Under the pieces are notes generated by a model. The model saw only the letters and a list, made by a program, of their open reading frames with translations. It was not told the origin of the DNA and searched no databases. From an uncultured virus (IMG/VR IMGVR_UViG_3300035680_001736) (taxonomy: Duplodnaviria > Heunggongvirae > Uroviricota > Caudoviricetes), in IMG/VR virus record IMGVR_UViG_3300035680_001736: DNA of 20,000 bases. The stretch is one strand, 5' to 3'. Shown here one piece after another: positions 12 to 18,699 of this stretch (positions are counted from its first letter, which is position 1; each line of letters begins with the position of its first letter). The position numbers were made by a program, and so were the translations under genes.

Positions 12-641
12 ATGAAATTAACTGTAGTAATAAACGAAAGTCAAAAAAAAGTTTTAATCACTGAATCAATCGTTGATGAATTGATTGGTGTTTTAAAAAC
101 TAACTACGAAACTGTTAAAAATATTATTGAGGAAACCTCTAAGGAATTTGGGGGTCATTTTAATATTTTGATATCGTGGGGGGCGACTATTGGTGGTTTA
201 ATTGAGCCATTATCAAGATTTATACGTGGTAACTATTCAGGGCTATCTGACACAGAGTTGAGTATAGTATTACTTGGGGTTATTGCAATATACTTCCAAG
301 ACAATAAATCAAAAGTTAAAGAAGTTCTTAATGTTATTAAAGAAAAAGGTTTAGAAGAACCATTCAAAATGGCATTATATAAAAGTCAGGAATTTAAAAC
401 CGCTTTTATGGATTTCATGGGAAGTTTAAATTTACATTTATATAAAGTGACAAACTTGATGTCATATGCGTTTTTAGCCCCGATTTTATTCTATTTGGCC
501 CAATACGCCACAAGTGGTGAAATTGATAGTTCTACTGTTAAGGAAATTTCAGATAGATTGTTAACTTCAGGACTACTAACTGTATCATCAATAGGTCTTA
601 GAAATTCAATTAGTAAAATAATTAAGAGATTTTCTTCTTAG
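12..641 (+). CDS. Hypothetical protein with shared N-terminal leader (MKLTVVINESQKKVLITE) and hydrophobic helices
   Basis: 209-aa ORF; leader resembles those of ORFs starting at 3108, 3709 and 8269; a possibly truncated TATTTAT motif (tttatt) at window start. Confidence 0.7.
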   Translation: MKLTVVINESQKKVLITESIVDELIGVLKTNYETVKNIIEETSKEFGGHFNILISWGATIGGLIEPLSRFIRGNYSGLSDTELSIVLLGVIAIYFQDNKSKVKEVLNVIKEKGLEEPFKMALYKSQEFKTAFMDFMGSLNLHLYKVTNLMSYAFLAPILFYLAQYATSGEIDSSTVKEISDRLLTSGLLTVSSIGLRNSISKIIKRFSS

Positions 642-1632
642 GATAGTTCATAATAGCGGATTTTATCTTTGCAACGTCCTTATCAGATAACCTAAATCTT
701 TTTGCATTATTTTCAAACCAATCATCAACAACATCAATCATAGGTAATCCCATAATCTTCGATTTTCTTTTGAGTCCTCTATATTGAGCCTCAATTTCAT
801 CTGGTTGTAAAAAATATCCAACATTTGACCCTTTATAATCGGTAATATCGAGTCTACCTTCAACATCCTGTCTCAAATGTTGTAGTTCGTGTGCAATATC
901 GTCATTAAGATTTCCAACTATAGAATGTAATGATTTTTGTAGTCTCTCAGGTACATACTGAATTAAAATTTGTAATTGTTGCCCCTCAGACACATAACCT
1001 GACTGTATTAAAAAGTCAGCACCTGATTTAATCTCTTCAAAATCAACCTGTCTAACATCCAAAAAAACGTCAAACTCAGGAAAATTCATTATCTCATAAC
1101 TTTCTTGACCATTTAAGTCATAAGGTAACATAATTTCATCAGTTTTACCTGATTTTAAAACCGTTACAATATCTCTAATTACAGTTCTAACTGCCAAAGT
1201 GGGTACTTTTTGTTCCCTTAAATCCCTTACAAGTTCATCCTCGTCAATATCATAATCAAAAACAAATTCATCAATAACAACATTTTCATAATTTTCTGTG
1301 TCGAAGAATTGGAGTACCGAAGATAAGTAATTTTGAACTCCACGTTTGAACGTCCACATATTTCTATCTAAATGACGTAATATATCTTCCTTTTCTACTT
1401 TTTTAAGTTGTAAAAGAACAAGTCTACTAACTCTATCTTTGATATCGGTAATAGTTATTTTTACCCTCATGTATGGGTATGGCTCACCAACTCTTATCAT
1501 ATTTCTATAACCCAATAACTCAATCTTGAAATTAATATTACCGTTTAAATTTTGTATAAGTTCCCCGGTATAATTGAAAGTATTATCTTTTAATAGACCA
1601 TTAATCCTATCTATCGCTTTTTCACTTAACAT
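622..1632 (-). CDS. Hypothetical protein with C-terminal HEXXH (zincin-like) domain
   Basis: AHELQHLRQ followed by YFLQPDEIEA; TATTTAT 4 nt before ATG. Confidence 0.65.
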   Translation of the reverse strand: MLSEKAIDRINGLLKDNTFNYTGELIQNLNGNINFKIELLGYRNMIRVGEPYPYMRVKITITDIKDRVSRLVLLQLKKVEKEDILRHLDRNMWTFKRGVQNYLSSVLQFFDTENYENVVIDEFVFDYDIDEDELVRDLREQKVPTLAVRTVIRDIVTVLKSGKTDEIMLPYDLNGQESYEIMNFPEFDVFLDVRQVDFEEIKSGADFLIQSGYVSEGQQLQILIQYVPERLQKSLHSIVGNLNDDIAHELQHLRQDVEGRLDITDYKGSNVGYFLQPDEIEAQYRGLKRKSKIMGLPMIDVVDDWFENNAKRFRLSDKDVAKIKSAIMNYPKKKIS

Positions 1633-2703: not shown

Positions 2704-3108
2704 TTACCAAGTACGACACGCCCAATATCTTGGTTTCCATCTTGGTCCAGGATTGTCACAATTGTGTCTCGCTCTGAAAGATTTTCTTCTTTCAGGATTA
2801 TTTTTCTTGATTGTCATTCTTTTTCCTTTTGCGGACTTACCACCAAAACCAAAGTTTACCTTAACAACTTTACCATTTTCATTCTTAACATAAACTTTAA
2901 ACTTTTTAATATCACCTTGCATGATTTTACCAAGCTGTACTTTTCTACCCTTATACTCCGCTTCATTTAAAACGTCAGTTGATTCGAAATCAGTTTCAAC
3001 AACACTTCCATATTCATCTTCATATATGATACCTTCATTCATCTGAGCGGTAACCATCTCAATAATTCTTTTCAAATCTGATTCTGTCAATCTTATAATT
3101 TTACTCAT
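2704..3108 (-). CDS. Phage-type basic protein (KVNFG...RRKSFRARHNC...YWAC) with shared N-terminal leader
   Basis: C-terminal motif recalled from large-phage hypothetical proteins; leader MSKIIRLTESDLKRIIE; TATTTAT at 3125-3131. Confidence 0.7.
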   Translation of the reverse strand: MSKIIRLTESDLKRIIEMVTAQMNEGIIYEDEYGSVVETDFESTDVLNEAEYKGRKVQLGKIMQGDIKKFKVYVKNENGKVVKVNFGFGGKSAKGKRMTIKKNNPERRKSFRARHNCDNPGPRWKPRYWACRTW

Positions 3109-3599: not shown

Positions 3600-3708
3600 T
3601 CATGTTTTGTAATTTACTTTTTATAGAACGAGTCTAAAATACTTTTAATATAAATATTGGTATCGAAGAATAATTCACAGTCAAATAATATTTATAAATA
3701 AAATTGTC

Positions 3709-4239
3709 ATGAAAAGAATTACGATAAACGAGGGTGAACTTAGAAAAATAATTAGACAACACCTGAAAGAGGAAATGGGAATGGATTCTAAAGAAACTCA
3801 AGAATCTAAACCAAAATGTATGACCACCAATTCTATCCCATTGACTGAACTTGTTGGTGAGGCCGGTGATTATGATTTATATTCTCCAGGTGTGACAAAA
3901 AGAAAAAGAGGAGTAAACTCAATGGTGGACACTTTAGGTATTTTAAATAACCTAAGATTATTTAAAGACGTTAATGACGGTGGTGCCCATCTTTCTTATG
4001 AAATGATGAATCATTTGAATAAATTTAAAAACAAAAACTACTACGATGAAACATCAGGAGAATGTCATAAAGCCATGGATAAAGTAATCGAACTATATAA
4101 AGAAAATGAACACGGGACAGAACTAGTTAAAGACATTGAAAGGGTACTCGCTCTTCAAACTAAAGATGACGAGTATACCCCATCTCCAAGAGCGAAAGAA
4201 TATTTAAAAAGATGTTTAATGTTAGTTAAAGAAAAATAA
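3709..4239 (+). CDS. Hypothetical protein with shared N-terminal leader (MKRITINEGELRKIIRQHLKE)
   Basis: 176-aa ORF; TATTTAT at 3689-3695. Confidence 0.7.
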   Translation: MKRITINEGELRKIIRQHLKEEMGMDSKETQESKPKCMTTNSIPLTELVGEAGDYDLYSPGVTKRKRGVNSMVDTLGILNNLRLFKDVNDGGAHLSYEMMNHLNKFKNKNYYDETSGECHKAMDKVIELYKENEHGTELVKDIERVLALQTKDDEYTPSPRAKEYLKRCLMLVKEK

Positions 4240-4513: not shown

Positions 4514-4801
4514 ATGAAAAAAATTGTTGCTCTTTTTGGAGAAGCCCTTCTTTGGTTAAAAGGTATTTTTAACGACGAGAAAGGTAATCCCTCATCAAAA
4601 AGAATTGTGGGTATGGGTTGTGCCATAGCACTATGTTTAACCATGTATCACAATAGCTTTTCCAATGTTGATGTTGCACCTGCAGAATACTTAGTTGACG
4701 CGGTTGCATTATTGGCGTTTGGTTGTCTAGGTCTTGCAAGTTTTGACAAGTTCACAGACAGAAGAGGTAGAAAGAAAAAGGATGAAGAAGAACCTAATTA
4801 A
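4514..4801 (+). CDS. Holin-like two-TM protein
   Basis: SSKR motif before TM1, second TM, highly charged C-tail RRGRKKKDEEE. Confidence 0.5.
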   Translation: MKKIVALFGEALLWLKGIFNDEKGNPSSKRIVGMGCAIALCLTMYHNSFSNVDVAPAEYLVDAVALLAFGCLGLASFDKFTDRRGRKKKDEEEPN

Positions 4802-5207: not shown

Positions 5208-7085
5208 TTACTTAGGTTGTACTTCTTCAAAATCTACGTCTGAAACTTCTTCATCCATAGTTTGACCGCCTTCACCTTCAGAACCAGACTGACTATAAAT
5301 TCCTTGGGTAATTGTTTGAGATGTGATTGCAACTTTTGCAGTTGCGTCTCTAACCTTTTCAACTTCCTTCTCTTGTAGGGCTGTTTTTAATTCAGCCAAA
5401 GCATCGGTTAATTGAGTTTTTTGTTCATCGGTCATTTTTTCTTCTAAATCCTTTAGAGTTTTTTCAGCTTGGAACGCCATAGAATCTCCTTGATTTATTA
5501 TGTCAGCATTTTCACGAGCTTTAGCGTCCGCTTCGGCATTTAACTCAGCATCACGTTTCATTTGTTCAATTTCCTCTTTAGAAAGTCCTGTCGAACTTTC
5601 AATACGGATTGATTGCTCTTTGTCAGTGGCTTTGTCTTTTGCTGAAACATTGATAATACCGTTAGCATCGATGTCAAAAGTTACTTCGATTTGTGGAACT
5701 CCTCTCATTGCCGTTGGAAGACCATCAAGGAAGAAACGACCAATTGTTCTATTGTCTTGAGCCATTGCTCTTTCTCCCTGTAGAACGTGAATTTCTACTG
5801 ATGGTTGATTGTCAACTGCGGTTGAGAAAACTTGTGACTTTTTTGTCGGAATTGTTGTGTTTGACTCAATAAGTTTTGTGAATACTCCACCCATCGTTTC
5901 AATACCGAGTGAAAGTGGTGTTACATCCAACAACAATACGTCTTTAACGTCACCTGCGAGTACTCCTCCTTGAATTGCAGCACCAAGTGCTACAACTTCA
6001 TCAGGGTTAACTCCTTTTGATGGTTCTTTACCGAAGAACTTTTTAACTGCCTCTTGGATTGCAGGAATTCTAGTTGAACCTCCAACCAAGATAACTTCAT
6101 CGATGTCTTTTGGTTTCAAACCTGCGTTTTTCAAGGCCGATTTACATGGTGCAATTGTACGTTGTACCAAACTGTCAACCAACTGCTCGAACTTTGCCTT
6201 TGTCATTGTACGAACCAAGTGTTTTGGCATACCATCTACCGGCATAATGTAAGGAAGATTGATTTCCGTTGATGGTGAAGATGAAAGTTCAATCTTTGCT
6301 TTTTCAGCTCCTTCACGAAGACGCTGAAGTGCCATTGGGTCTTGATTCAAATCCAAACCATTTTCATCTTTGAACTCTTGAACGAGCCAGTCGATAATTG
6401 CTTGGTCAAAGTCATCACCACCTAGGTGTGTATCACCGTCAGTTGACAAAACTTCAAATACCCCATCACCAAGTTCAAGAACCGATACGTCGTGAGTACC
6501 ACCACCACAGTCAAACACAACAACTTTCATATCCTGACCTTTTTTGTCAAGACCATAGGCAAGTGCCGCCGCGGTTGGTTCGTTAATAATACGTTTAACA
6601 GTTAGACCTGCAATTTCACCGGCTTCTTTTGTTGCCTGACGTTGAGCATCATTGAAATATGCTGGTACTGTAATAACCGCATCAGTTACTGTTTCACCCA
6701 AATAGTCTTCGGCAGTTTGCTTCATTTTCTGAAGAACCATCGCCGAAATTTCCTGAGCTGAAAACTTCTTGTCCTCAATTTGAACACGAGGAGTGTTACC
6801 CTCACCTTTAACCACTTTATAAGGAACACGCTTGATTTCTTTTTTACTTTCATCGAAACTTGCTCCCATAAAACGCTTAATGGAGTAAACTGTTTTATCA
6901 GGATTTGTAACCGCTTGACGTTTTGCCGGGTCACCAATCTTTCTATCACCACCATTTGCAAAACCAACAATCGAAGGGGTGGTTCTTTTTCCTTCACTGT
7001 TTGTAATCACAACAGGTTCGCCATTTTCCATAACGGCAACACATGAATTTGTTGTTCCTAAATCAATACCTATAATTTTACCCAT
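5208..7085 (-). CDS. dnaK: Molecular chaperone DnaK (Hsp70), Bacteroidota-like
   Basis: [74 protein letters not shown] resembles Bacteroidota DnaK. Confidence 0.98.
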
Positions 7086-7228: not shown

Positions 7229-8269
7229 TTATTTTTCGAGTTCTAAAGTATATAATCTCATGAAATTTCTTTGCAGTTTGTCACCGGCCTTATTGATTCT
7301 TGGTTGGAAATTATTAATCAAATCTAACAAACCTTCAGTTTTTTCTATATACCGTGCCGGTTTTTCACCGTAAACTCTCATCCATTTGTAATAATCGGTC
7401 ATAAACCATTTATATAAATTGTTCAAAATAGACAGTAGTTTATCGGGGTTCACTTCTTGAATTTTATTTGTCAACTTATCAAAAAACGTATCGGCATCAA
7501 AGTTTTTCATGACTGATGCGTTGGACCAAAGTTTAGTTTTTTTGAATTCTTCAAAGGGTAATATTGATGTTTGGCTAACCGCCTCTTGTGATTTTGCATT
7601 TACTTCATATGGTTCTGAATAGTATATCATATCCAAAAATTCTTGCCAAACTTTGTAAATTTCTTTGTTTACGTTATAGTTTTTACCTCCAACCCAACTC
7701 AAGGTGGTATTAAATTGTTTTGCTCCTGATTCAGCCCTTCGATAACTCTCTAACATGTGATTACATTCGTGAATTATCGTATCTCTAAGGTCATATAGTG
7801 CTTTGTCTTTCAATTCTTCATTGAACTCAATCCCTATTTTAAAACTTATAAATAATTTTACATACAAAGTTTGAGTAATCTCCTCCAAAATATACTTAGG
7901 TAACTCAAGTGTGGGTGATTTTAAATATGACCCACCAAATGATTTTTTGTCTATTGATTGAAATCCTCCTCCTGACGTGAATCTGTTTTCTTTTGTATTT
8001 TTTGGAATTTTCAAACAAGAAAAATCAATTTCAATTTTTTCCACGGGTAACTCAATATAATCATCCATACTTGATTGAAAAATTTGTGAAATATCTTTCA
8101 AGTCTATAATGATTTTTTGTTTGGATGGAATTCTTGATTCCATAAATTCAAGGACCTTAGGTTCGAGTTTTTGGTATATCAAATTACTGTAGGACAAGGA
8201 AACCCGGGAGACTCCCAAATCTTCTTTAATAAGTGTTTTCAATTGGTTCTCAGATAACAAAACTTTCAT
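7229..8269 (-). CDS. HEXXH zincin-like protein with shared N-terminal leader (MKVLLSENQLKTLIKE)
   Basis: IIHECNHMLE ... YYSEPYEVNA; TATTTAT at 8274-8280. Confidence 0.65.
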   Translation of the reverse strand: MKVLLSENQLKTLIKEDLGVSRVSLSYSNLIYQKLEPKVLEFMESRIPSKQKIIIDLKDISQIFQSSMDDYIELPVEKIEIDFSCLKIPKNTKENRFTSGGGFQSIDKKSFGGSYLKSPTLELPKYILEEITQTLYVKLFISFKIGIEFNEELKDKALYDLRDTIIHECNHMLESYRRAESGAKQFNTTLSWVGGKNYNVNKEIYKVWQEFLDMIYYSEPYEVNAKSQEAVSQTSILPFEEFKKTKLWSNASVMKNFDADTFFDKLTNKIQEVNPDKLLSILNNLYKWFMTDYYKWMRVYGEKPARYIEKTEGLLDLINNFQPRINKAGDKLQRNFMRLYTLELEK

Positions 8270-8413: not shown

Positions 8414-9271
8414 ATGAAAAACACAAAAATTTATCACGAGTTGGTCCAAAAGATGAGGACCTTTTTCCTAAACAAAGGTTTTCTTGAGGTTCCGACCCAA
8501 TCAAGATTATCAATTCTCGCAGCATGTGAGAATCCACACTCAATCACAACGTTTGAGTATCAAGGTCAAATTTGGCCATTACCACAAACAGGTCAAATGT
8601 GGTTAGAGTATGAATTGTTACAAAATTCCGAATGGCCAGGTGTGTTCTGTATCTCAACATCATACAGACAAGAAAAAGACCCAATCCCAGGTCGTCACGA
8701 ATTAATCTTCCCAATGTTTGAATTCGAGTCAAAGGGTGGTATGAAAGAATTACTTAAATTAGAATCTGAATTACTTGCGTTTTTAGGTTTTGATTCTCCT
8801 GTTGAAGTGAATTATGACGATGTTTGTGAAGAATATGGCGGAGTTCCGATTTTGGAAAACGAACACGAAACTAAAATGTGGAAAGAAAAAGGTGATGTGG
8901 TGTCATTACAAAATTTCCCTGTTAGAACTAACCCATTTTGGAACATGAAGTCAGGTGAAGGTGACAAATTCAATAAAGTAGACGTTATTCTTTACGGTCA
9001 AGAAACAATTGGTTCTGCTGAAAGAAGTTGTGATGTTGATGAAATGAGACAAATGTTCTATACTATAGAAAACGGTGGTTATTCTGCCAAATTGTTTGAA
9101 TTGTTTGGTAAAGAAAGAGTTGAAAAAGAACTTGAAGAGTTTTTATCTCACAAATTCTTTAAAAGATTTGGTGGAGGTATTGGTTTAACTCGTCTTGCCA
9201 GAGCATATCAAATGATGAAAGACTCTCACGATGAATTACACATGAATTATGGTGATGTAAACAAATTTTGA
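8414..9271 (+). CDS. Class IIb aaRS catalytic-domain-only protein, AsnRS-like; probable asparagine synthetase (archaeal AsnA/AS-AR type)
   Basis: Motif 1 FFLNKGFLEVPT, QTGQMWLE (cf. AsnRS QSGQLYLE), motif 2 SYRQE..RHELIFPMFEFE, QETIGSAER, motif 3 GGGIGLTRL; no anticodon-binding OB domain; Asn-rich leader. Confidence 0.75.
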   Translation: MKNTKIYHELVQKMRTFFLNKGFLEVPTQSRLSILAACENPHSITTFEYQGQIWPLPQTGQMWLEYELLQNSEWPGVFCISTSYRQEKDPIPGRHELIFPMFEFESKGGMKELLKLESELLAFLGFDSPVEVNYDDVCEEYGGVPILENEHETKMWKEKGDVVSLQNFPVRTNPFWNMKSGEGDKFNKVDVILYGQETIGSAERSCDVDEMRQMFYTIENGGYSAKLFELFGKERVEKELEEFLSHKFFKRFGGGIGLTRLARAYQMMKDSHDELHMNYGDVNKF

Positions 9272-9773: not shown

Positions 9774-10124
9774 ATGAAGCAGATTATATTTTTGGTGTTT
9801 ATGTTCTTACAGGTTGTAGGACATTCACAAGTAGAAGAAGTTGTGTTTAAAAATGACAAAGGTCAAATCGAACAACGTGGTCATTTATCAAATAATCTAA
9901 AAACTGGTGAGTGGATTGCTTATTATGAAAATGGAAGCATATTTTCTGTAGGTTATTATGATAAAGGTAGAAAAGATGGAATCTGGACTACATATTCACC
10001 AGTTGGAATTAGAGTATCTCAAGTCAAATATTTTAAGGGTAAAAAATATGAAGGTTGGATGTATGATATGGAAGGAAATTTAGTTGAGAAAAGAATTTTT
10101 AAGGATTATATCACAAATGATTAA
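9774..10124 (+). CDS. Exported MORN-variant repeat (YwqK-like) protein
   Basis: Signal peptide-like N-terminus; repeats GEWIAYYENG, GYYDKGRKDGIWTTYSPVG; TATTTAT at 9750-9756. Confidence 0.75.
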   Translation: MKQIIFLVFMFLQVVGHSQVEEVVFKNDKGQIEQRGHLSNNLKTGEWIAYYENGSIFSVGYYDKGRKDGIWTTYSPVGIRVSQVKYFKGKKYEGWMYDMEGNLVEKRIFKDYITND

Positions 10125-10804
10125 TTCTTCTTTGGTTTTTCTGACGCATACTTAACACCCATTATAGTTCCGACAATACTGAATGCATTTGTTAATAATA
10201 TACCAAACATATTACTCCAAGTTGAGCCAATTATTTGGGTATCTTGACCTGTGAACAATGCCACAGAATATAATGCCGTAGTAACTATTCCAACTCCAAT
10301 AATTACAATTAAAGCAACTCTTACAATTGTATTTATTAACTCAAATTGAGTTTTCTTTTGTAACACATCCAAATCATTTTCGGCATGTTGTTTTGCCTTT
10401 TCAGCATCAACCCTTGCTTGTTCGGATTTAACCATCTCCACCGTTAATTCTTCCGTCAACCTCAAATTATCCAATTTCCACTCGTTTAATTCTCTGTTTT
10501 GGACTTCAAATGTTAATTTAGATTCTTCAACTTCATTTAATGTTGTTTGAAGTTCGTCTAATATCTTTTGATTTTGGGCGTTTAAGTCGGATAGTTCTTT
10601 GTTTTGGGTTTGAATTTGTTTGGTAATGTCAAGTCTCTTCTTTCTATTTGCAACATCTCTTTCACCACACTTTTTAAGGTATTCTTTAAAATATTCATCC
10701 CCATCAGAATTAATTACCTTAACTATATTTCCTTCCAAAAATAAGTTTTTGGTTTCTGATAAGATAATTAATTCTTGTTTTATTTCAGGGGTGAATTTTA
10801 TCAT
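10121..10804 (-). CDS. Coiled-coil protein with two C-terminal TM helices
   Basis: Long E/Q/K/L-rich stretch then two hydrophobic helices; ATGA overlap with the receiver gene. Confidence 0.75.
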   Translation of the reverse strand: MIKFTPEIKQELIILSETKNLFLEGNIVKVINSDGDEYFKEYLKKCGERDVANRKKRLDITKQIQTQNKELSDLNAQNQKILDELQTTLNEVEESKLTFEVQNRELNEWKLDNLRLTEELTVEMVKSEQARVDAEKAKQHAENDLDVLQKKTQFELINTIVRVALIVIIGVGIVTTALYSVALFTGQDTQIIGSTWSNMFGILLTNAFSIVGTIMGVKYASEKPKKN

Positions 10805-11232
10805 TTGTAAATTTTAAACGGAGCGGTTCTGTTTTTGTAACCTTCATAATCTTTCTTAAACTCCTCCAATCTTGGTTCAATCTCATCTGATTTTATAATC
10901 CAAAATTGAGCACCTGACTGAATTGCCTTTGCCTGTTCTTCGGGTTCGTTTGAAGATGAAATAATTCCGATTACAACATTATTACCGTATTCAAAGTTAA
11001 TCTTTCTAATTAACTCAATACCATCAAAGGAAGACCCAATGATATTCAAATCAACAAACACACATTCAGGCTTATCAGAGCTATTTGATTGCCATTTTTC
11101 AAATAATTTGGCGGCCTCATCTGAACTATTCAAACTTTTTAAAGATAATGTTATATCAAGAAGCGAACAGCTATCTTCAAATACTAAATGGAATAAATCC
11201 TCGTCATCTACAAGTAAAATTGAATCAATCAT
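10801..11232 (-). CDS. Single-domain response regulator (receiver only)
   Basis: ILLVDDED, phospho-Asp in VFVDLNI, DGIEL, ISSS, FWIIK; no output domain. Confidence 0.92.
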   Translation of the reverse strand: MIDSILLVDDEDLFHLVFEDSCSLLDITLSLKSLNSSDEAAKLFEKWQSNSSDKPECVFVDLNIIGSSFDGIELIRKINFEYGNNVVIGIISSSNEPEEQAKAIQSGAQFWIIKSDEIEPRLEEFKKDYEGYKNRTAPFKIYK

Positions 11233-11240
11233 AGTTTTTT

Positions 11241-12494
11241 TTATTTTATTTTTATTTTCAGTTTAGTTCCTATCTCATTTTTCTCACATCTTACCAAAAA
11301 CTTGTGTTCTTGTAATATCGCAACACATATGTTTAATCCGAGTCCAGTTCCTGACTCTTTTTGCCCTTCTTTTCTTGTGTATGGTTTTGATAAATGGTCA
11401 AAATCTTTTTGGTCAATACCTCGTCCATTATCCTGAACCATTAACTCATCACCTTCCATATATATTTTTACAAATTTTGTTTCAGAATCATTATACTTCA
11501 ATCCATTCCTAATTAAGTTGTCTATTGCCGTACAGAATAGAGCTTCATTAACTTCTATGGTTGGTAGTTCCTCAATAATTACCTGACTATGATAAGCAGT
11601 TGATGATAAATAATCATTTAGTATCGCTCTTAAATCACATTCAGCTTTATTTAATACCACATCTTTTTTAACCAAATTGGTAAATTCATAAACACCTTTA
11701 TAAACTTTTTGTGAGTGTCTTAATCCCTCCTTAATCATTTTAAGGGGAGCCTCAATCTTTAAAGTTTCTATGTCCTCAGGTTTTAATCTTCTTTCCAAAG
11801 AACTTATACCTCTCGGGATATAAGTATTAATTCCAGAGTGCATGTCGTGTCTCAATATTTTAGCCGCGTGCTCGAGATAAGTGTTTTGTTTTTCAATTTC
11901 TTTTGACTTTTCAACAATTTCAGATATGTCTCTTGCAATTTTTAATACTCGATAGGTTTCTCCTGTTTCATTTATAATTGGATTGTAGGTGGCACTTAAA
12001 TAAATCTTGTTACCGTCCTTTTTCTTTCTGATAATGTCCCCACTAAAATAAACACCTGATTTAAGTTTGTTCCAAAAATTAATATACCCATTTGAATTTT
12101 TTTCATCATCAAAAACAAAAATACTATGATGTTTTCCTATAACCTCTTCTGATTTATACCCCATTGCATCCAAAAATGAATCATTGGCAAAACAAACTAT
12201 ACCATTAGTATCAAATTCAATCACAGGACTTGAACGATTAATCGCATCCATTCTATTTGCTAACGCTCTTTCTTTTTGTGTGATTTTTTCAGTAAGTTTT
12301 TTATTTTCCCTTTCATTCTTAATATATTGTCTGATAAAGGAATATAAAAAATATGTTATTGTCAAAAATAGAATATATTCCGACCCCCTCGTAACTGGTG
12401 ATGAAGGAGTGATATCAAGTAATACTGTAGTTTTCAGGATTAAGAAAACAACTACTATTAATGAAATTAAGTTTAATTTTAATTTTAACGACAT
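11241..12494 (-). CDS. Membrane PAS-domain sensor histidine kinase
   Basis: 2 N-terminal TM; PAS/PAC (IEFDTNG..AN..F...GY..EEVIGKHHS...FW...RKKKDG...YNPI); H-box LRHDMHS; N box NLIRNGLKY; DNGRGI; GTGLGL. Confidence 0.93.
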   Translation of the reverse strand: MSLKLKLNLISLIVVVFLILKTTVLLDITPSSPVTRGSEYILFLTITYFLYSFIRQYIKNERENKKLTEKITQKERALANRMDAINRSSPVIEFDTNGIVCFANDSFLDAMGYKSEEVIGKHHSIFVFDDEKNSNGYINFWNKLKSGVYFSGDIIRKKKDGNKIYLSATYNPIINETGETYRVLKIARDISEIVEKSKEIEKQNTYLEHAAKILRHDMHSGINTYIPRGISSLERRLKPEDIETLKIEAPLKMIKEGLRHSQKVYKGVYEFTNLVKKDVVLNKAECDLRAILNDYLSSTAYHSQVIIEELPTIEVNEALFCTAIDNLIRNGLKYNDSETKFVKIYMEGDELMVQDNGRGIDQKDFDHLSKPYTRKEGQKESGTGLGLNICVAILQEHKFLVRCEKNEIGTKLKIKIK

Positions 12495-12563
12495 TCATCA
12501 ATAAATATCAATATACTCTTTAAGTTAAAAAAAATATTACTATAATTAAGGTTTTTTTAAAAT

Positions 12564-12589
12564 AAAAAACCCGTCGGTTAGACGGGTTT
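12564..12589 (-). terminator. Intrinsic terminator after the phosphoesterase gene
   Basis: AAACCCGTC-N5-GACGGGTTT with T tract on the minus strand. Confidence 0.8.
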
Positions 12590-12593
12590 CAAA

Positions 12594-13283
12594 TTAAATA
12601 AACTCCAATTTATTCGTTACAGGGTCCCATTCTACCGTTAGTGGTTTTTGGGTGTATTGATACTGTTCGTCTAATACCGAGGCATTGATGAAGTGAGTAT
12701 CTCCGTCAAAAACATAACCATACCCTGAATGTATGTGCCCGCAGACATGAATTTTAGGTTTAATTGTTTTAATTCTTTTTGTCAGTAATTCACATCCAAG
12801 ATTATCATACTGACCCATAATTGTATCCAAATAACCAAATGCCGGTCCGTGAGTAATTAATATGTCAGTATCATCAGGAATGTCATTCCACTTCTGTGTA
12901 AGTTTATGACCATTCTTTGGTAGATTAAACGCCCAATTATAGAACTCGGGCTGCCATGGACTACCATAAATCTTTACATAATTTTCCGTATCAACTCCGT
13001 AACCAAGAAAACTATCTTGAAGATAAACAATGTCATTATAAAAACCGACAACCTCTTTGGCCATTTCGGGTTCCTTTTCAAACCCAAAGTCGTGATTACC
13101 GGCAATGAATGTCTTTACAGTATAATTTTCCAAACTGTCAAACCACTTGCAGAATTTTTGGATTTCATACTTATAACCCATTGATGAGATATCACCAGCG
13201 TGAATCAGTAAGTCACCTCCTGGCAAATCTTCAGTAATTTGCTTGTGTTTGTTGTGAGTATCTGATATAAAAGTTATTTTCAT
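12594..13283 (-). CDS. Calcineurin-like metallophosphoesterase (MPPED/239FB-like)
   Basis: SDTH, HAGD, GNHD, THGP, GHIH motifs. Confidence 0.92.
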   Translation of the reverse strand: MKITFISDTHNKHKQITEDLPGGDLLIHAGDISSMGYKYEIQKFCKWFDSLENYTVKTFIAGNHDFGFEKEPEMAKEVVGFYNDIVYLQDSFLGYGVDTENYVKIYGSPWQPEFYNWAFNLPKNGHKLTQKWNDIPDDTDILITHGPAFGYLDTIMGQYDNLGCELLTKRIKTIKPKIHVCGHIHSGYGYVFDGDTHFINASVLDEQYQYTQKPLTVEWDPVTNKLEFI

Positions 13284-13801
13284 TTTTTTACTTGGGTTTC
13301 CTCCAATTCAACAGATGTTGGTCTGCCAAAGATAAGAACATTTACTTTAAGTTTACCTTTCTCTTTATCAATAAATTCAATGTTTCCCTTAAAGGATGTA
13401 AATGGACCTTCAGTTACAGTAACTTCATCTCCAACACTGAATATGTCTGAAAAACTTTTTGTTTTGTTTTCTTCGTGAATTCCAATCATTCGGTTTACTT
13501 CTTGGTCTGATACAATTTGGATATTTCCAGCTCTGTCAGACAACAATCCCGTTGCTCCATCAATTTTTTTAACAACTTGTTTTAATTCCCCAATTGCGGA
13601 TGTTTCAACAAAAACATAACCAGGAAACAAAACTTTTTCACGTTGTGTTTTTTTACCATCTTTCGTGGCAAATACTTTTTCCATTGGAACTACAACTCTT
13701 CCGATTACCCCATTGAGTTCCCCTTTGTCGGCTTCTTTTAAAATTCTTTCTGAGACTTTTCTCTCACGATTTGCTTGTGCTCTTACAATGTACCATTCCA
13801 T
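13280..13801 (-). CDS. nusG: Transcription termination/antitermination factor NusG
   Basis: WYIV, LFPGYVFVE (NGN); VGDEVTVTEGPF (KOW); IFGRPTSVEL. Confidence 0.95.
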   Translation of the reverse strand: MEWYIVRAQANRERKVSERILKEADKGELNGVIGRVVVPMEKVFATKDGKKTQREKVLFPGYVFVETSAIGELKQVVKKIDGATGLLSDRAGNIQIVSDQEVNRMIGIHEENKTKSFSDIFSVGDEVTVTEGPFTSFKGNIEFIDKEKGKLKVNVLIFGRPTSVELEETQVKK

Positions 13802-15630: not shown

Positions 15631-16056
15631 ATGAAAATAGTACAAAACGGTGACTCCGTAAAAGTTAACTACACAGGACGTTTAGAGGACGGTTCTGTAT
15701 TCGATTCTTCACTAACTGAAGGTCGTGAACCATTGGCTGCGGTATTAGGACAAGGTCAATTGATTAAAGGTTTTGAATCAGGATTGATGGGAATGTCAGT
15801 CGGAGATAAAAAGACAGTGGAAATTGACCCATCAGAAGCTTATGGTGATGTTGTTGAGGGTATGGTAAGTGAAGTACCTCTCGGGAATCTTCCTGAAAAT
15901 GTTAAAGTTGGTGACCAACTACAGGGTATGACCGAACGTGGTCCAGTAATGGTAGTTGTTAAAGAAGTGAATGAAACCTCAGCTATGGTTGATGCAAATC
16001 ATCCTTTGGCAGGTAAAAAACTTATCTTTGATTTGGAGTTGGTTAGTATCGACTAA
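15631..16056 (+). CDS. FKBP-type peptidyl-prolyl isomerase, SlyD/SlpA-like (no His-rich tail)
   Basis: VKVNYTGRLEDGSVFDSS, GQLIKGFE, PSEAYG, VDANHPLAGKKLIF. Confidence 0.95.
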   Translation: MKIVQNGDSVKVNYTGRLEDGSVFDSSLTEGREPLAAVLGQGQLIKGFESGLMGMSVGDKKTVEIDPSEAYGDVVEGMVSEVPLGNLPENVKVGDQLQGMTERGPVMVVVKEVNETSAMVDANHPLAGKKLIFDLELVSID

Positions 16057-16446
16057 TCACTCATACATCTTATCTTCGAGGTCGGGGTATATTTTCTCAA
16101 ACATTTTCATGAGAGCCCCGGCCTCGCTATTTGCCATATCCTCATTTCTCCCCCCAATATCGGAACCGTGTTTCCATTTTAACACATCTCTTTGATACTC
16201 ATGAACCCATTCATGAGACAAGGTCCTCAAAATATCCCGGTATATTCTACCTTTAGTTAAAACTTTTATTTCATTTTCTTCAGTACGACTACCAGTAGTC
16301 ATATTACCAGTTCTTTCTGAAATAAAGAATATCTTTAAGTTGTTTTTTAACGGATATTGTTTTTGTAAAAACCTCAAAAACAAATCAATCAATTTATAAT
16401 CTTTTTGAGGTATTCCTGAATTCCTGTGCGTAATTATAACCTTCAT
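16057..16446 (-). CDS. Small HEXXH zincin-like protein
   Basis: RTLSHEWVHEYQ ... NEDMAN; TATTTAT at 16454-16460. Confidence 0.7.
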   Translation of the reverse strand: MKVIITHRNSGIPQKDYKLIDLFLRFLQKQYPLKNNLKIFFISERTGNMTTGSRTEENEIKVLTKGRIYRDILRTLSHEWVHEYQRDVLKWKHGSDIGGRNEDMANSEAGALMKMFEKIYPDLEDKMYE

Positions 16447-18221: not shown

Positions 18222-18250
18222 ATTATAATTATTATTTTTTGAATTGTCAA
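18222..18250 (-). promoter_or_regulatory. Perfect consensus sigma70 promoter TTGACA-N17-TATAAT
   Basis: tgtcaa 18245-18250, 17-nt spacer, attata 18222-18227. Confidence 0.8.
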
Positions 18251-18699
18251 ATTTCTGAGCCAATTCTAAATTTTTCTTCAGGGGTTAGGAGACCCTTTCC
18301 AAATTTTTCTCTTCTATCCCAGTATCTTTCTTTAACATGCTGATGAATCGGTCTGGGTTTCCCGTCTTCATCAATTCTAACAAACACAATTTTTGTTTGG
18401 GTTACAATGTCTTGCTCACCTGTATAAACATTGTGTTTTCTAACTTCAATATAAAGTGTAACAGAGGTGTTTCCAAATGAAACAACTTCACCATAAACTT
18501 TCAAAATGTTTCCAACCTTCACCGCTCGTTTAAATAACAACTCATCAATTTTAAGTGTTACAATTTTTTGGGTGTCACAGATTTGTGAAGCATATGAAGC
18601 CGCAGCATCATCAATAAGTCCGAGTATCAAACCTCCGAACATATTTCCGTGAACACCCTCGTCACCTTTCTTACAAATGTAGGTTGTTATTAATTCCAT
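18247..18699 (-). CDS. Acyl-CoA thioesterase (HotDog fold, YciA-like)
   Basis: HGNMFGG..L..ID.AA, VT, F...VKVG, GNTSV, FVRIDEDGKPRPI. Confidence 0.9.
   Translation of the reverse strand: MELITTYICKKGDEGVHGNMFGGLILGLIDDAAASYASQICDTQKIVTLKIDELLFKRAVKVGNILKVYGEVVSFGNTSVTLYIEVRKHNVYTGEQDIVTQTKIVFVRIDEDGKPRPIHQHVKERYWDRREKFGKGLLTPEEKFRIGSEI

Follow-up and report, generated by a model that had tools for sequence, protein, structure and literature searches.

A histidine kinase, a stand-alone receiver and a phage-only membrane hairpin protein in an uncultured T4-like jumbo phage: a possible non-transcriptional route to lysis control

The window considered here, a stretch of 20,000 nucleotides corresponding to bases 61615-81614 of the 81,665-base IMG/VR virus record IMGVR_UViG_3300035680_001736 (CheckV completeness 28%), carries three tightly linked genes for a histidine kinase (HK), a stand-alone receiver (RR) and a membrane protein with a C-terminal helical hairpin (TM), collectively called the trio; their coordinates are compiled in Table 1. 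The special feature of this system, and what is new here, is the combination of a two-component system with a phage-only membrane output. The source of the trio is an uncultured T4-like jumbo phage, and we are confident, short of certainty, that the hairpin protein is the output of the pathway. The full proposal, a phage-borne and non-transcriptional two-component pathway in which the hairpin acts as effector and controls lysis, a function suggested by gene context, stands in our judgement at about an even chance. The broader view, put forward more tentatively, is that lysis effectors gated by a signal form a new class, spread through a large T4-like clade; such an effector would be a holin-like hairpin whose drive comes from a PAS or GAF sensor fused to it or from a His-Asp phosphorelay. 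An earlier note on this DNA had already described the three genes, with an 8-nt gap between the HK stop and the RR start and an overlap of RR stop and TM start in the form of ATGA, and all of these are present at the positions it gave.

The assignment of TM as the output derives from natural proteins in which the same hairpin is attached to other heads. A profile of the last 88 residues of TM, searched against 1.84 billion representative proteins, retrieved 110 representatives, and the hairpin is C-terminal in every one of them. Three of these proteins carry a PAS-PAS (P0156, 371 aa), a PAS (P0149, 251 aa) or a GAF head (P0129, 360 aa), which a short coiled coil links to the hairpin. P0156 matches the PAS domain of the window's HK with 46-48% identity (E 2e-34 and 7e-34) and the C-terminal half of TM with 48% identity (E 1e-38), and is devoid of DHp, CA, receiver and the N-terminal domain of TM. 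Relatives of P0156 in viral contigs number 253, the best 80 of which are 74-99% identical to it over the full length, and the GAF-hairpin form is found full-length in three contigs; these 80 and the three GAF contigs constitute the 83 fused loci referred to below. None of the 83 holds a kinase core or a receiver, no receiver domain was found anywhere in five genomes that encode a fused protein (completeness of at least 91% for three), and each of the five genomes searched for hairpin genes has exactly one. The presence of sensor-hairpin fusions without kinase or receiver argues for the hairpin as the output module, which lends support to the effector role that the earlier note had assigned to the protein with two membrane helices. 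Furthermore, the N-terminal domain of TM, recognizable by a LEGNI motif, goes with the receiver, while the fused sensor goes without it, a pattern to be expected if HK, RR and this N-domain together represent one interchangeable input. In a quick tree (90 columns, root unknown) the PAS-fused forms group together with a branch support of 99, and the GAF-fused forms group separately with a support of 97, amid hairpins of the trio type; either fusion or fission may have come first.

The architecture of TM comprises the N-domain, a coiled-coil stalk and the C-terminal membrane hairpin. In the AlphaFold model (pLDDT 86, pTM 0.33) a small N-domain is followed by a single helix, residues 37-185, that enters the first membrane helix, and the chain ends in the second membrane helix, to give a helical hairpin. 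Conservation peaks in the hairpin, whose second helix is nearly invariant and polar; the stalk is variable and has a 7-residue indel, as expected for a coiled coil. Beyond its own unnamed family, no family was found for TM in Pfam, PHROG, NCBIfam, PDB or BFVD. The sequence search of the PDB returned one match at chance level (E 0.43), the fold search of BFVD a member of the unnamed family with all remaining matches at E >0.3, and the ESM Atlas just unnamed viral clusters. Atlas clusters of the hairpin family consist of viruses to 96-100%, and more than 7,600 proteins related to TM occur in metagenomes. One protein of 458 aa, known from a single metagenome contig (P0121), has an unrelated N-terminal half of 230 residues followed by TM from about residue 10 onward, with no part of receiver size; it could be a real variant or an artefact of assembly or frameshift.

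The three genes travel together. Relatives of TM in viral contigs number 316, and linkage was counted in the best 80 of them: RR lies directly upstream of TM in 78 of these loci, the other two beginning at the TM gene, and HK was found in 72, with seven further loci lacking upstream DNA and one (L043) having no HK within 5.5 kb. The RR stop and the TM start overlap in 73 of 77 loci, by 4 nt in 36 and by 1 nt in 37. The third gene is thus kept beside the pair, an outcome on which the earlier note had made its proposal depend, and the genes flanking the trio vary widely among relatives. The kinase itself occurs with PAS, PAS-PAS or GAF-PAS-PAS sensor parts; in the nearest relatives HK is a 530-aa form with a second PAS domain, which the HK of the window lacks. 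In five loci (L008:3144-3866, L035, L053, L054 and L073) a GIY-YIG/NUMOD3 homing endonuclease gene sits exactly between HK and RR, both of which are intact. A second kinase is encoded in L022 (4238-5557) and in about 22 other loci; it shares the H-box of HK, carries a signal peptide and has a coiled-coil domain in the periplasm, and is preceded by a secreted protein of about 205 aa without known family (L022:3597-4241). The two could feed a signal from outside the cytoplasm into the same receiver.

Among 185,579 species genomes TM was met in just four contigs, all from metagenome-assembled genomes (MAGs) and from four different phyla, and all four loci keep the order HK-RR-TM, down to 40% TM identity. 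GenBank phages (50,697 records) gave no match to RR or TM and five matches to HK, all partial, which fits the earlier statement that two-component systems are unusual in phages. Searches of the literature outside subscription journals and supplements brought up no PAS-fused holin, no receiver-controlled holin and no kinase-receiver pair of a jumbo phage, and the accessible part of a jumbo-phage survey (PMC7824862) mentions only a divergent receiver unlinked to kinases.

HK starts with a membrane anchor (about aa 8-58), followed by a single PAS domain in the cytoplasm, a divergent predicted DHp and HATPase_c. Pfam detects PAS_9 (9e-14) and HATPase_c (5.7e-13, 49.7 bits vs a cut-off of 26.4), and the ATP-binding motifs are in place with the N box at aa 325, G1 at aa 355 and G2 at aa 382. 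The H-box reads RHDMHSG (residues 215-221), atypical as pointed out in the earlier note, and is invariant across 71 distinct related kinase cores. The nearest solved kinase core by sequence is that of the HK853-RR468 pair of Thermotoga (PDB 3dge, 2c2a, 4jas): DHp and CA align with it, residues 195-404 of HK over about 210 residues (phmmer, E ~1e-8), and His216 falls on its H-box histidine. HK departs from HK853 in having an H-box that escapes Pfam HisKA and a sensor part made of a membrane anchor and PAS. The best PDB matches of this PAS domain are MmoS (3ewk, 4.4e-12), NifL (2gj3, 4.9e-11) and Aer (8dik, 1.9e-7), and NCBIfam nifL_nitrog matches HK at 1.2e-19, yet far below the family cut-off. 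By sequence the domain is therefore most similar to the flavin (FAD)-binding PAS domains of these three proteins; in the alignments the Trp of their 'W-S/Q-G' motif is replaced by Phe. The earlier description of a PAS kinase holds, with two amendments: the membrane anchor had been missed, and the PAS domain, called chemoreceptor-like, is closest to the flavin type of MmoS, NifL and Aer.

RR is a receiver and nothing else. Pfam reports Response_reg (35.2 bits vs a cut-off of 30.2), and no output domain besides the receiver was found in its 143 residues with Pfam, PHROGs or NCBIfam, in agreement with the absence of a DNA-binding output remarked on before. Residues D9, D10, D61, S92-94 and K114 are invariant in 56 receivers, D61 being the predicted phospho-acceptor, and the C-terminal tail is conserved as well. 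RR is 77-100% identical across 78 loci, with a mean column identity of 86%, above that of either neighbour (TM 70%). Comparison with the three nearest relatives gave dN/dS of 0.01-0.04 for RR and 0.05-0.11 for TM; the genes of the trio are under strong purifying selection.

The route that we infer, in which phosphotransfer, the contact between RR and TM, the kind of signal and the influence on lysis are all hypothetical, would proceed as follows. The membrane-anchored HK would sense a cytoplasmic cue via its PAS domain, perhaps the redox or energy state of the host as suggested in the earlier note, and autophosphorylate on His216, from which the phosphate would move to Asp61 of RR. Translational coupling would fix the proportion of RR to TM, and RR would bind the cytoplasmic N-domain or the stalk of TM. 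The coiled coil, being continuous with the first membrane helix, would relay the signal such that the packing or the oligomeric state of the hairpin shifts, and the hairpin, most likely acting on the lysis machinery of the inner membrane, would then promote or restrain hole formation; it may be a holin-like module with a gate or a regulator of the antiholin kind. The time of lysis would in this way be set by the state of the infected cell, and a phage His-Asp phosphorelay could integrate the input of one or two kinases.

Lysis enters this proposal through the gene neighbourhood of the relatives. Peptidoglycan hydrolases of three types were counted (GH19, Peptidase_M15 and a third type labelled c56). 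A hydrolase gene is located within 1.5 kb of the fused gene in 70 of the 83 loci, within 100 nt in 23 and on the same strand in 69 of the 70. For the trio, a hydrolase gene is found within about 6 kb in 40 of 81 loci, either directly downstream, or two to five genes downstream past small membrane proteins, or upstream in either orientation. In L124 a complete cassette is seen, in the order small ORF with two membrane helices, sensor-hairpin, GH19 endolysin, Phage_holin_4_1 holin (27.1 bits vs a cut-off of 22.2; phrog_199 holin, 1.3e-5) and spanin-like open reading frames (ORFs). Adjacency persists though the type of enzyme is swapped, which argues for a functional tie to lysis. The window itself encodes, 5.3 kb from TM, a protein labelled c7 that combines a pair of hydrophobic helices with a strongly charged C-terminal end. 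It has no Pfam or PHROG match, and its relatives adjoin M15 endolysin genes in other phages. Judged by these features and by context, c7 is tentatively the sole holin-like candidate of the window and a possible partner of the hairpin protein.

Several observations weigh against control of lysis by the trio, or against parts of the pathway as drawn. No lysis enzyme lies beside the trio in the window, and the GH19, M15 and c56 hydrolases of the relatives, like their c4 and c10 proteins, are absent from the 81.7-kb contig. About 55-60 kb separate the trio from the c56-type hydrolase gene in both of the nearest complete genomes, and a GH19-like gene, located 4.8 kb upstream of the trio, is present in just one of the two; M15 is absent from G001 and G002, and Phage_holin_4_1 from five genomes including the window's contig. 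The suggestion of lysis timing made in the earlier note is thus favoured by the gene context in relatives and disfavoured by the phage's own neighbourhood. TM belongs to no holin or antiholin family in Pfam, PHROG, NCBIfam, PDB or BFVD, and separate holin candidates coexist with the hairpin gene in the cassettes, by which the role of a regulator is slightly favoured over that of a gated holin. The 110 representatives include no fusion of a receiver to the hairpin, and Pfam HisKA does not match the DHp of HK taken alone, even at E 10. Finally, the fused forms occupy two branches of the tree, so that the many fused loci may amount to few independent observations.

In this context one has to consider that the hairpin may be the output of the pathway and the membrane event something other than lysis, for instance superinfection exclusion, a controlled ion leak or depolarisation in the course of host takeover, or the steering of some membrane complex of the host. 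A second helix that is polar and nearly invariant would equally suit a channel or contact with a conserved host membrane protein, and here as in the nearest complete relatives the trio is situated among genes of chaperone, translation and transcription function (DnaK, AsnRS-like and NusG) and not beside lysis enzymes. This explanation has difficulty with the hydrolase genes next to most of the fused genes, where three catalytic types replace one another in place, and with the Pfam holin in the same cassette, which is hard to understand without a role in lysis in at least those phages; we regard it as rather improbable, albeit the most serious competitor. Less likely still is that TM serves as an anchor, a scaffold or a phosphate-drain partner, with the real target of RR being another protein of phage or host. 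Single-domain receivers often serve as sinks or shuttles, which would fit such a role, and the conservation of RR above both of its neighbours suggests several partners; a mere anchor, however, would not retain an almost invariant second helix, and the PAS- and GAF-hairpin fusions occur in phages that have no receiver, which implies that the hairpin itself does something in response to a sensor. That the trio is a two-component operon of cellular origin, brought in by mis-assembly or recent capture and playing no part in infection, may be dismissed as highly improbable, for although kinase and receiver domains are typical bacterial parts and four relatives fall into MAG bins of different phyla, phage structural genes share the contig, the 316 viral relatives include complete genomes of 321-322 kb, the genes are under strong purifying selection and TM is almost absent from the species genomes.

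The phage nature of the contig, which the earlier note had named as a point on which its proposal could fall, is evident from its head and packaging genes, comprising a major head protein (phrog_138, 2e-66), a portal (phrog_213, 4e-64), a prohead protease and TerL, and the record is classed as viral. The major capsid protein is gp23-like, with an identity to cultured phages of at most 41-43%, the nearest being the capsids of Flavobacterium phage immuto and Microcystis phage Mel-JY01, and the closest relatives of the trio are carried by complete genomes of the size given above. The DnaK encoded in the window is 70-80% identical to DnaK of MAGs labelled almost all as Bacteroidota, mainly Flavobacteriales, which fits a Bacteroidota host without proving it; the host of the T4-like clade is probably a member of the Bacteroidota.

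The terminator that the earlier note had placed upstream of the genes was recovered as the intrinsic terminator of the upstream metallophosphoesterase gene, and it marks the 5' boundary of the transcription unit. The promoter presumably lies within the AT-rich spacer of 71 nt that follows. A TATTTAT motif, stressed in the earlier note, does exist (12507-12501), just 7 nt ahead of the ATG of HK, a distance that makes it an improbable -10 box. The sole sigma-70-like match in the spacer overlaps the HK start codon, neither the T4-late-like TATAAATA nor a Bacteroidota-type TAnnTTTG box is present in it, and promoter-like matches around the trio (19 vs 21.0 in shuffles) are not enriched, so that no promoter is established. 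The motif TATAAATA, which we take to be the T4 late-promoter box, occurs in nine copies in the window against 2.6 expected, a number reached in 0 of 200 shuffles; the copies, at 3649, 3689, 3693, 4325, 7847, 8273, 9750, 15035 and 16453, include several directly upstream of ORF starts and none before the trio. On the other side of the trio, the 3' ends of the TM gene and of a convergent MORN-repeat gene share 4 nt, with no terminator detected between these two genes. Five metatranscriptome runs contain just 6-12% of the sampled words. Short contigs from RNA libraries (four runs) match stretches of HK, RR and TM, some of these matches showing 0-1 differences; this is not proof of transcription, and gene parts without such contigs carry no meaning.

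Table 1. Positions, in the numbering of the window, of the trio with its parts and of further features mentioned in the text
Feature	Position	Strand	Remarks
HK, sensor kinase	11241-12494	-	417 aa ORF
HK PAS domain	11901-12242	-	aa 85-198
HK His216 codon	11847-11849	-	H-box
RR, receiver	10801-11232	-	143 aa ORF
RR D61 codon	11050-11052	-	predicted phospho-acceptor
TM, output protein (probable)	10121-10804	-	227 aa ORF
TM N-terminal domain	10631-10804	-	aa 1-58, LEGNI motif
TM coiled-coil stalk	10340-10630	-	aa 59-155
TM membrane hairpin	10145-10339	-	aa 156-220
Intrinsic terminator of upstream metallophosphoesterase gene	12590-12566	-	hairpin then T run, -15.2 kcal/mol, z -4.2
AT-rich spacer before HK gene	12495-12565	-	71 nt, promoter site presumed here
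c7	4514-4801	+	95 aa, tentative holin-like candidate
MORN-repeat gene	9774-10124	+	convergent with TM gene
DnaK	5208-7085		full-length
Class II aminoacyl-tRNA synthetase core	8414-9271		285 aa
NusG-like factor	13280-13801
FKBP-type prolyl isomerase	15631-16056
IMPDH/GMP-reductase-like	1696-2703
4HBT thioesterase	18247-18699
ORFan	622-1632		HExxH
ORFan	7229-8269		HExxH; short N-terminal helix
ORFan	16057-16446		HExxH
ORFan	2704-3108		short N-terminal helix
ORFan	3709-4239		short N-terminal helix
ORFan	12-641		short N-terminal helix

Apart from the trio, the window is crowded with cell-like genes (Pfam, PHROG), among them those for a full-length DnaK, a NusG-like factor, an FKBP-type prolyl isomerase, an IMPDH/GMP-reductase-like protein, a 4HBT thioesterase and a class II aminoacyl-tRNA synthetase core of the Asp/Lys/Asn type, which consists of the catalytic part only and has no anticodon-binding domain. 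Inspection by eye revealed an HExxH motif, as in zinc metallopeptidases, in three ORFans, and a similar short N-terminal helix at the start of four; a strict regular expression for the common N-terminal motif matched just 2 of 86 ORFs. Outside the window, directly downstream of the head genes, a single ORF of 3,998 aa (G000:C1:5225-17221, minus strand) has no PHROG match at 1e-5.

The timing of lysis is a central life-history decision of a phage. If the broader view of a signal-gated lysis effector is true, a lysis clock under phosphorelay control would for the first time be known from a virus, and nature would have provided a modular 'sensor to membrane' switch. A phage-borne two-component pathway that ends at a membrane effector instead of a transcription factor would represent a new viral means of sensing the physiology of the host. 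Since PAS, GAF and kinase plus receiver are interchangeable as inputs, the pathway lends itself to direct testing, and the module could find use as a compact lysis switch under ligand or redox control. The hairpin family is abundant in metagenomes and absent from cultured phage records.

Among known systems, two features of architecture may be compared first. Class II holins and pinholins, such as S21 68/71, have two membrane helices with both ends in the cytoplasm. The C-terminal 70 residues of TM resemble this arrangement, with two membrane helices, cytoplasmic ends and a short basic tail, and helix 2 displays a small/polar stripe (G201, T205, S209, T213) as in a class II holin. TM differs from these proteins in that it has no family match, that its hairpin is mounted on 150 residues of cytoplasmic input and stalk, for which we know of no counterpart in any described holin, and that other holin candidates coexist with it in the cassettes. 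In CheA-CheY-FliM pathways a single-domain receiver acts through protein contact. RR is comparable to CheY in that it stands alone, its D, D, D, S/T and K residues being intact, and its output must be a protein contact; unlike CheA, HK is probably a class I HisKA-like membrane kinase, and the target would be a phage-only membrane hairpin protein in place of FliM.

LytSR is a cellular system that acts transcriptionally, via the DNA-binding regulator with its LytTR domain. Together with LrgAB/CidAB of Firmicutes it likewise represents a two-component system coupled to holin/antiholin-like membrane proteins, according to the available parts of two accounts (PMC2996381, PMC5717393). The trio falls outside this group, as RR has no LytTR domain and HK shows the order anchor-PAS-DHp-CA (Pfam); it is phage-borne, its receiver is without a DNA-binding domain, and the coupling would be from protein to protein.

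Closest in purpose is lysis inhibition in T4, which, as outlined in the accessible part of PMC11413866, involves the holin T and the antiholins RI and RIII. In both cases a T4-like phage would employ a dedicated sensor to hold or release a membrane lysis effector, making the time of lysis responsive to a signal, and the second kinase of the relatives, with its periplasmic domain and accompanying secreted protein, recalls the periplasmic sensing by RI. By sequence the trio is unrelated to T, RI and RIII, with no match in PHROG or Pfam, and its signal route would be cytoplasmic, by phosphotransfer from His to Asp or, in the fused forms, through the attached PAS or GAF domain, in contrast to direct periplasmic binding in T4. 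A second, unrelated phage lineage with condition-dependent lysis time is Vibrio phage ICP1, whose holin/antiholin pair TeaA/ArrA sets the time of lysis by conditions (PMC7182436, in the part available); this pair comes without a kinase, receiver, PAS or GAF module and has no detectable sequence relation to the trio. The antiholin controls known from T4 and ICP1 act via direct protein binding. A member of none of these systems, the trio is comparable in purpose to lysis inhibition in T4 and ICP1, and in logic to the CheY pathways.

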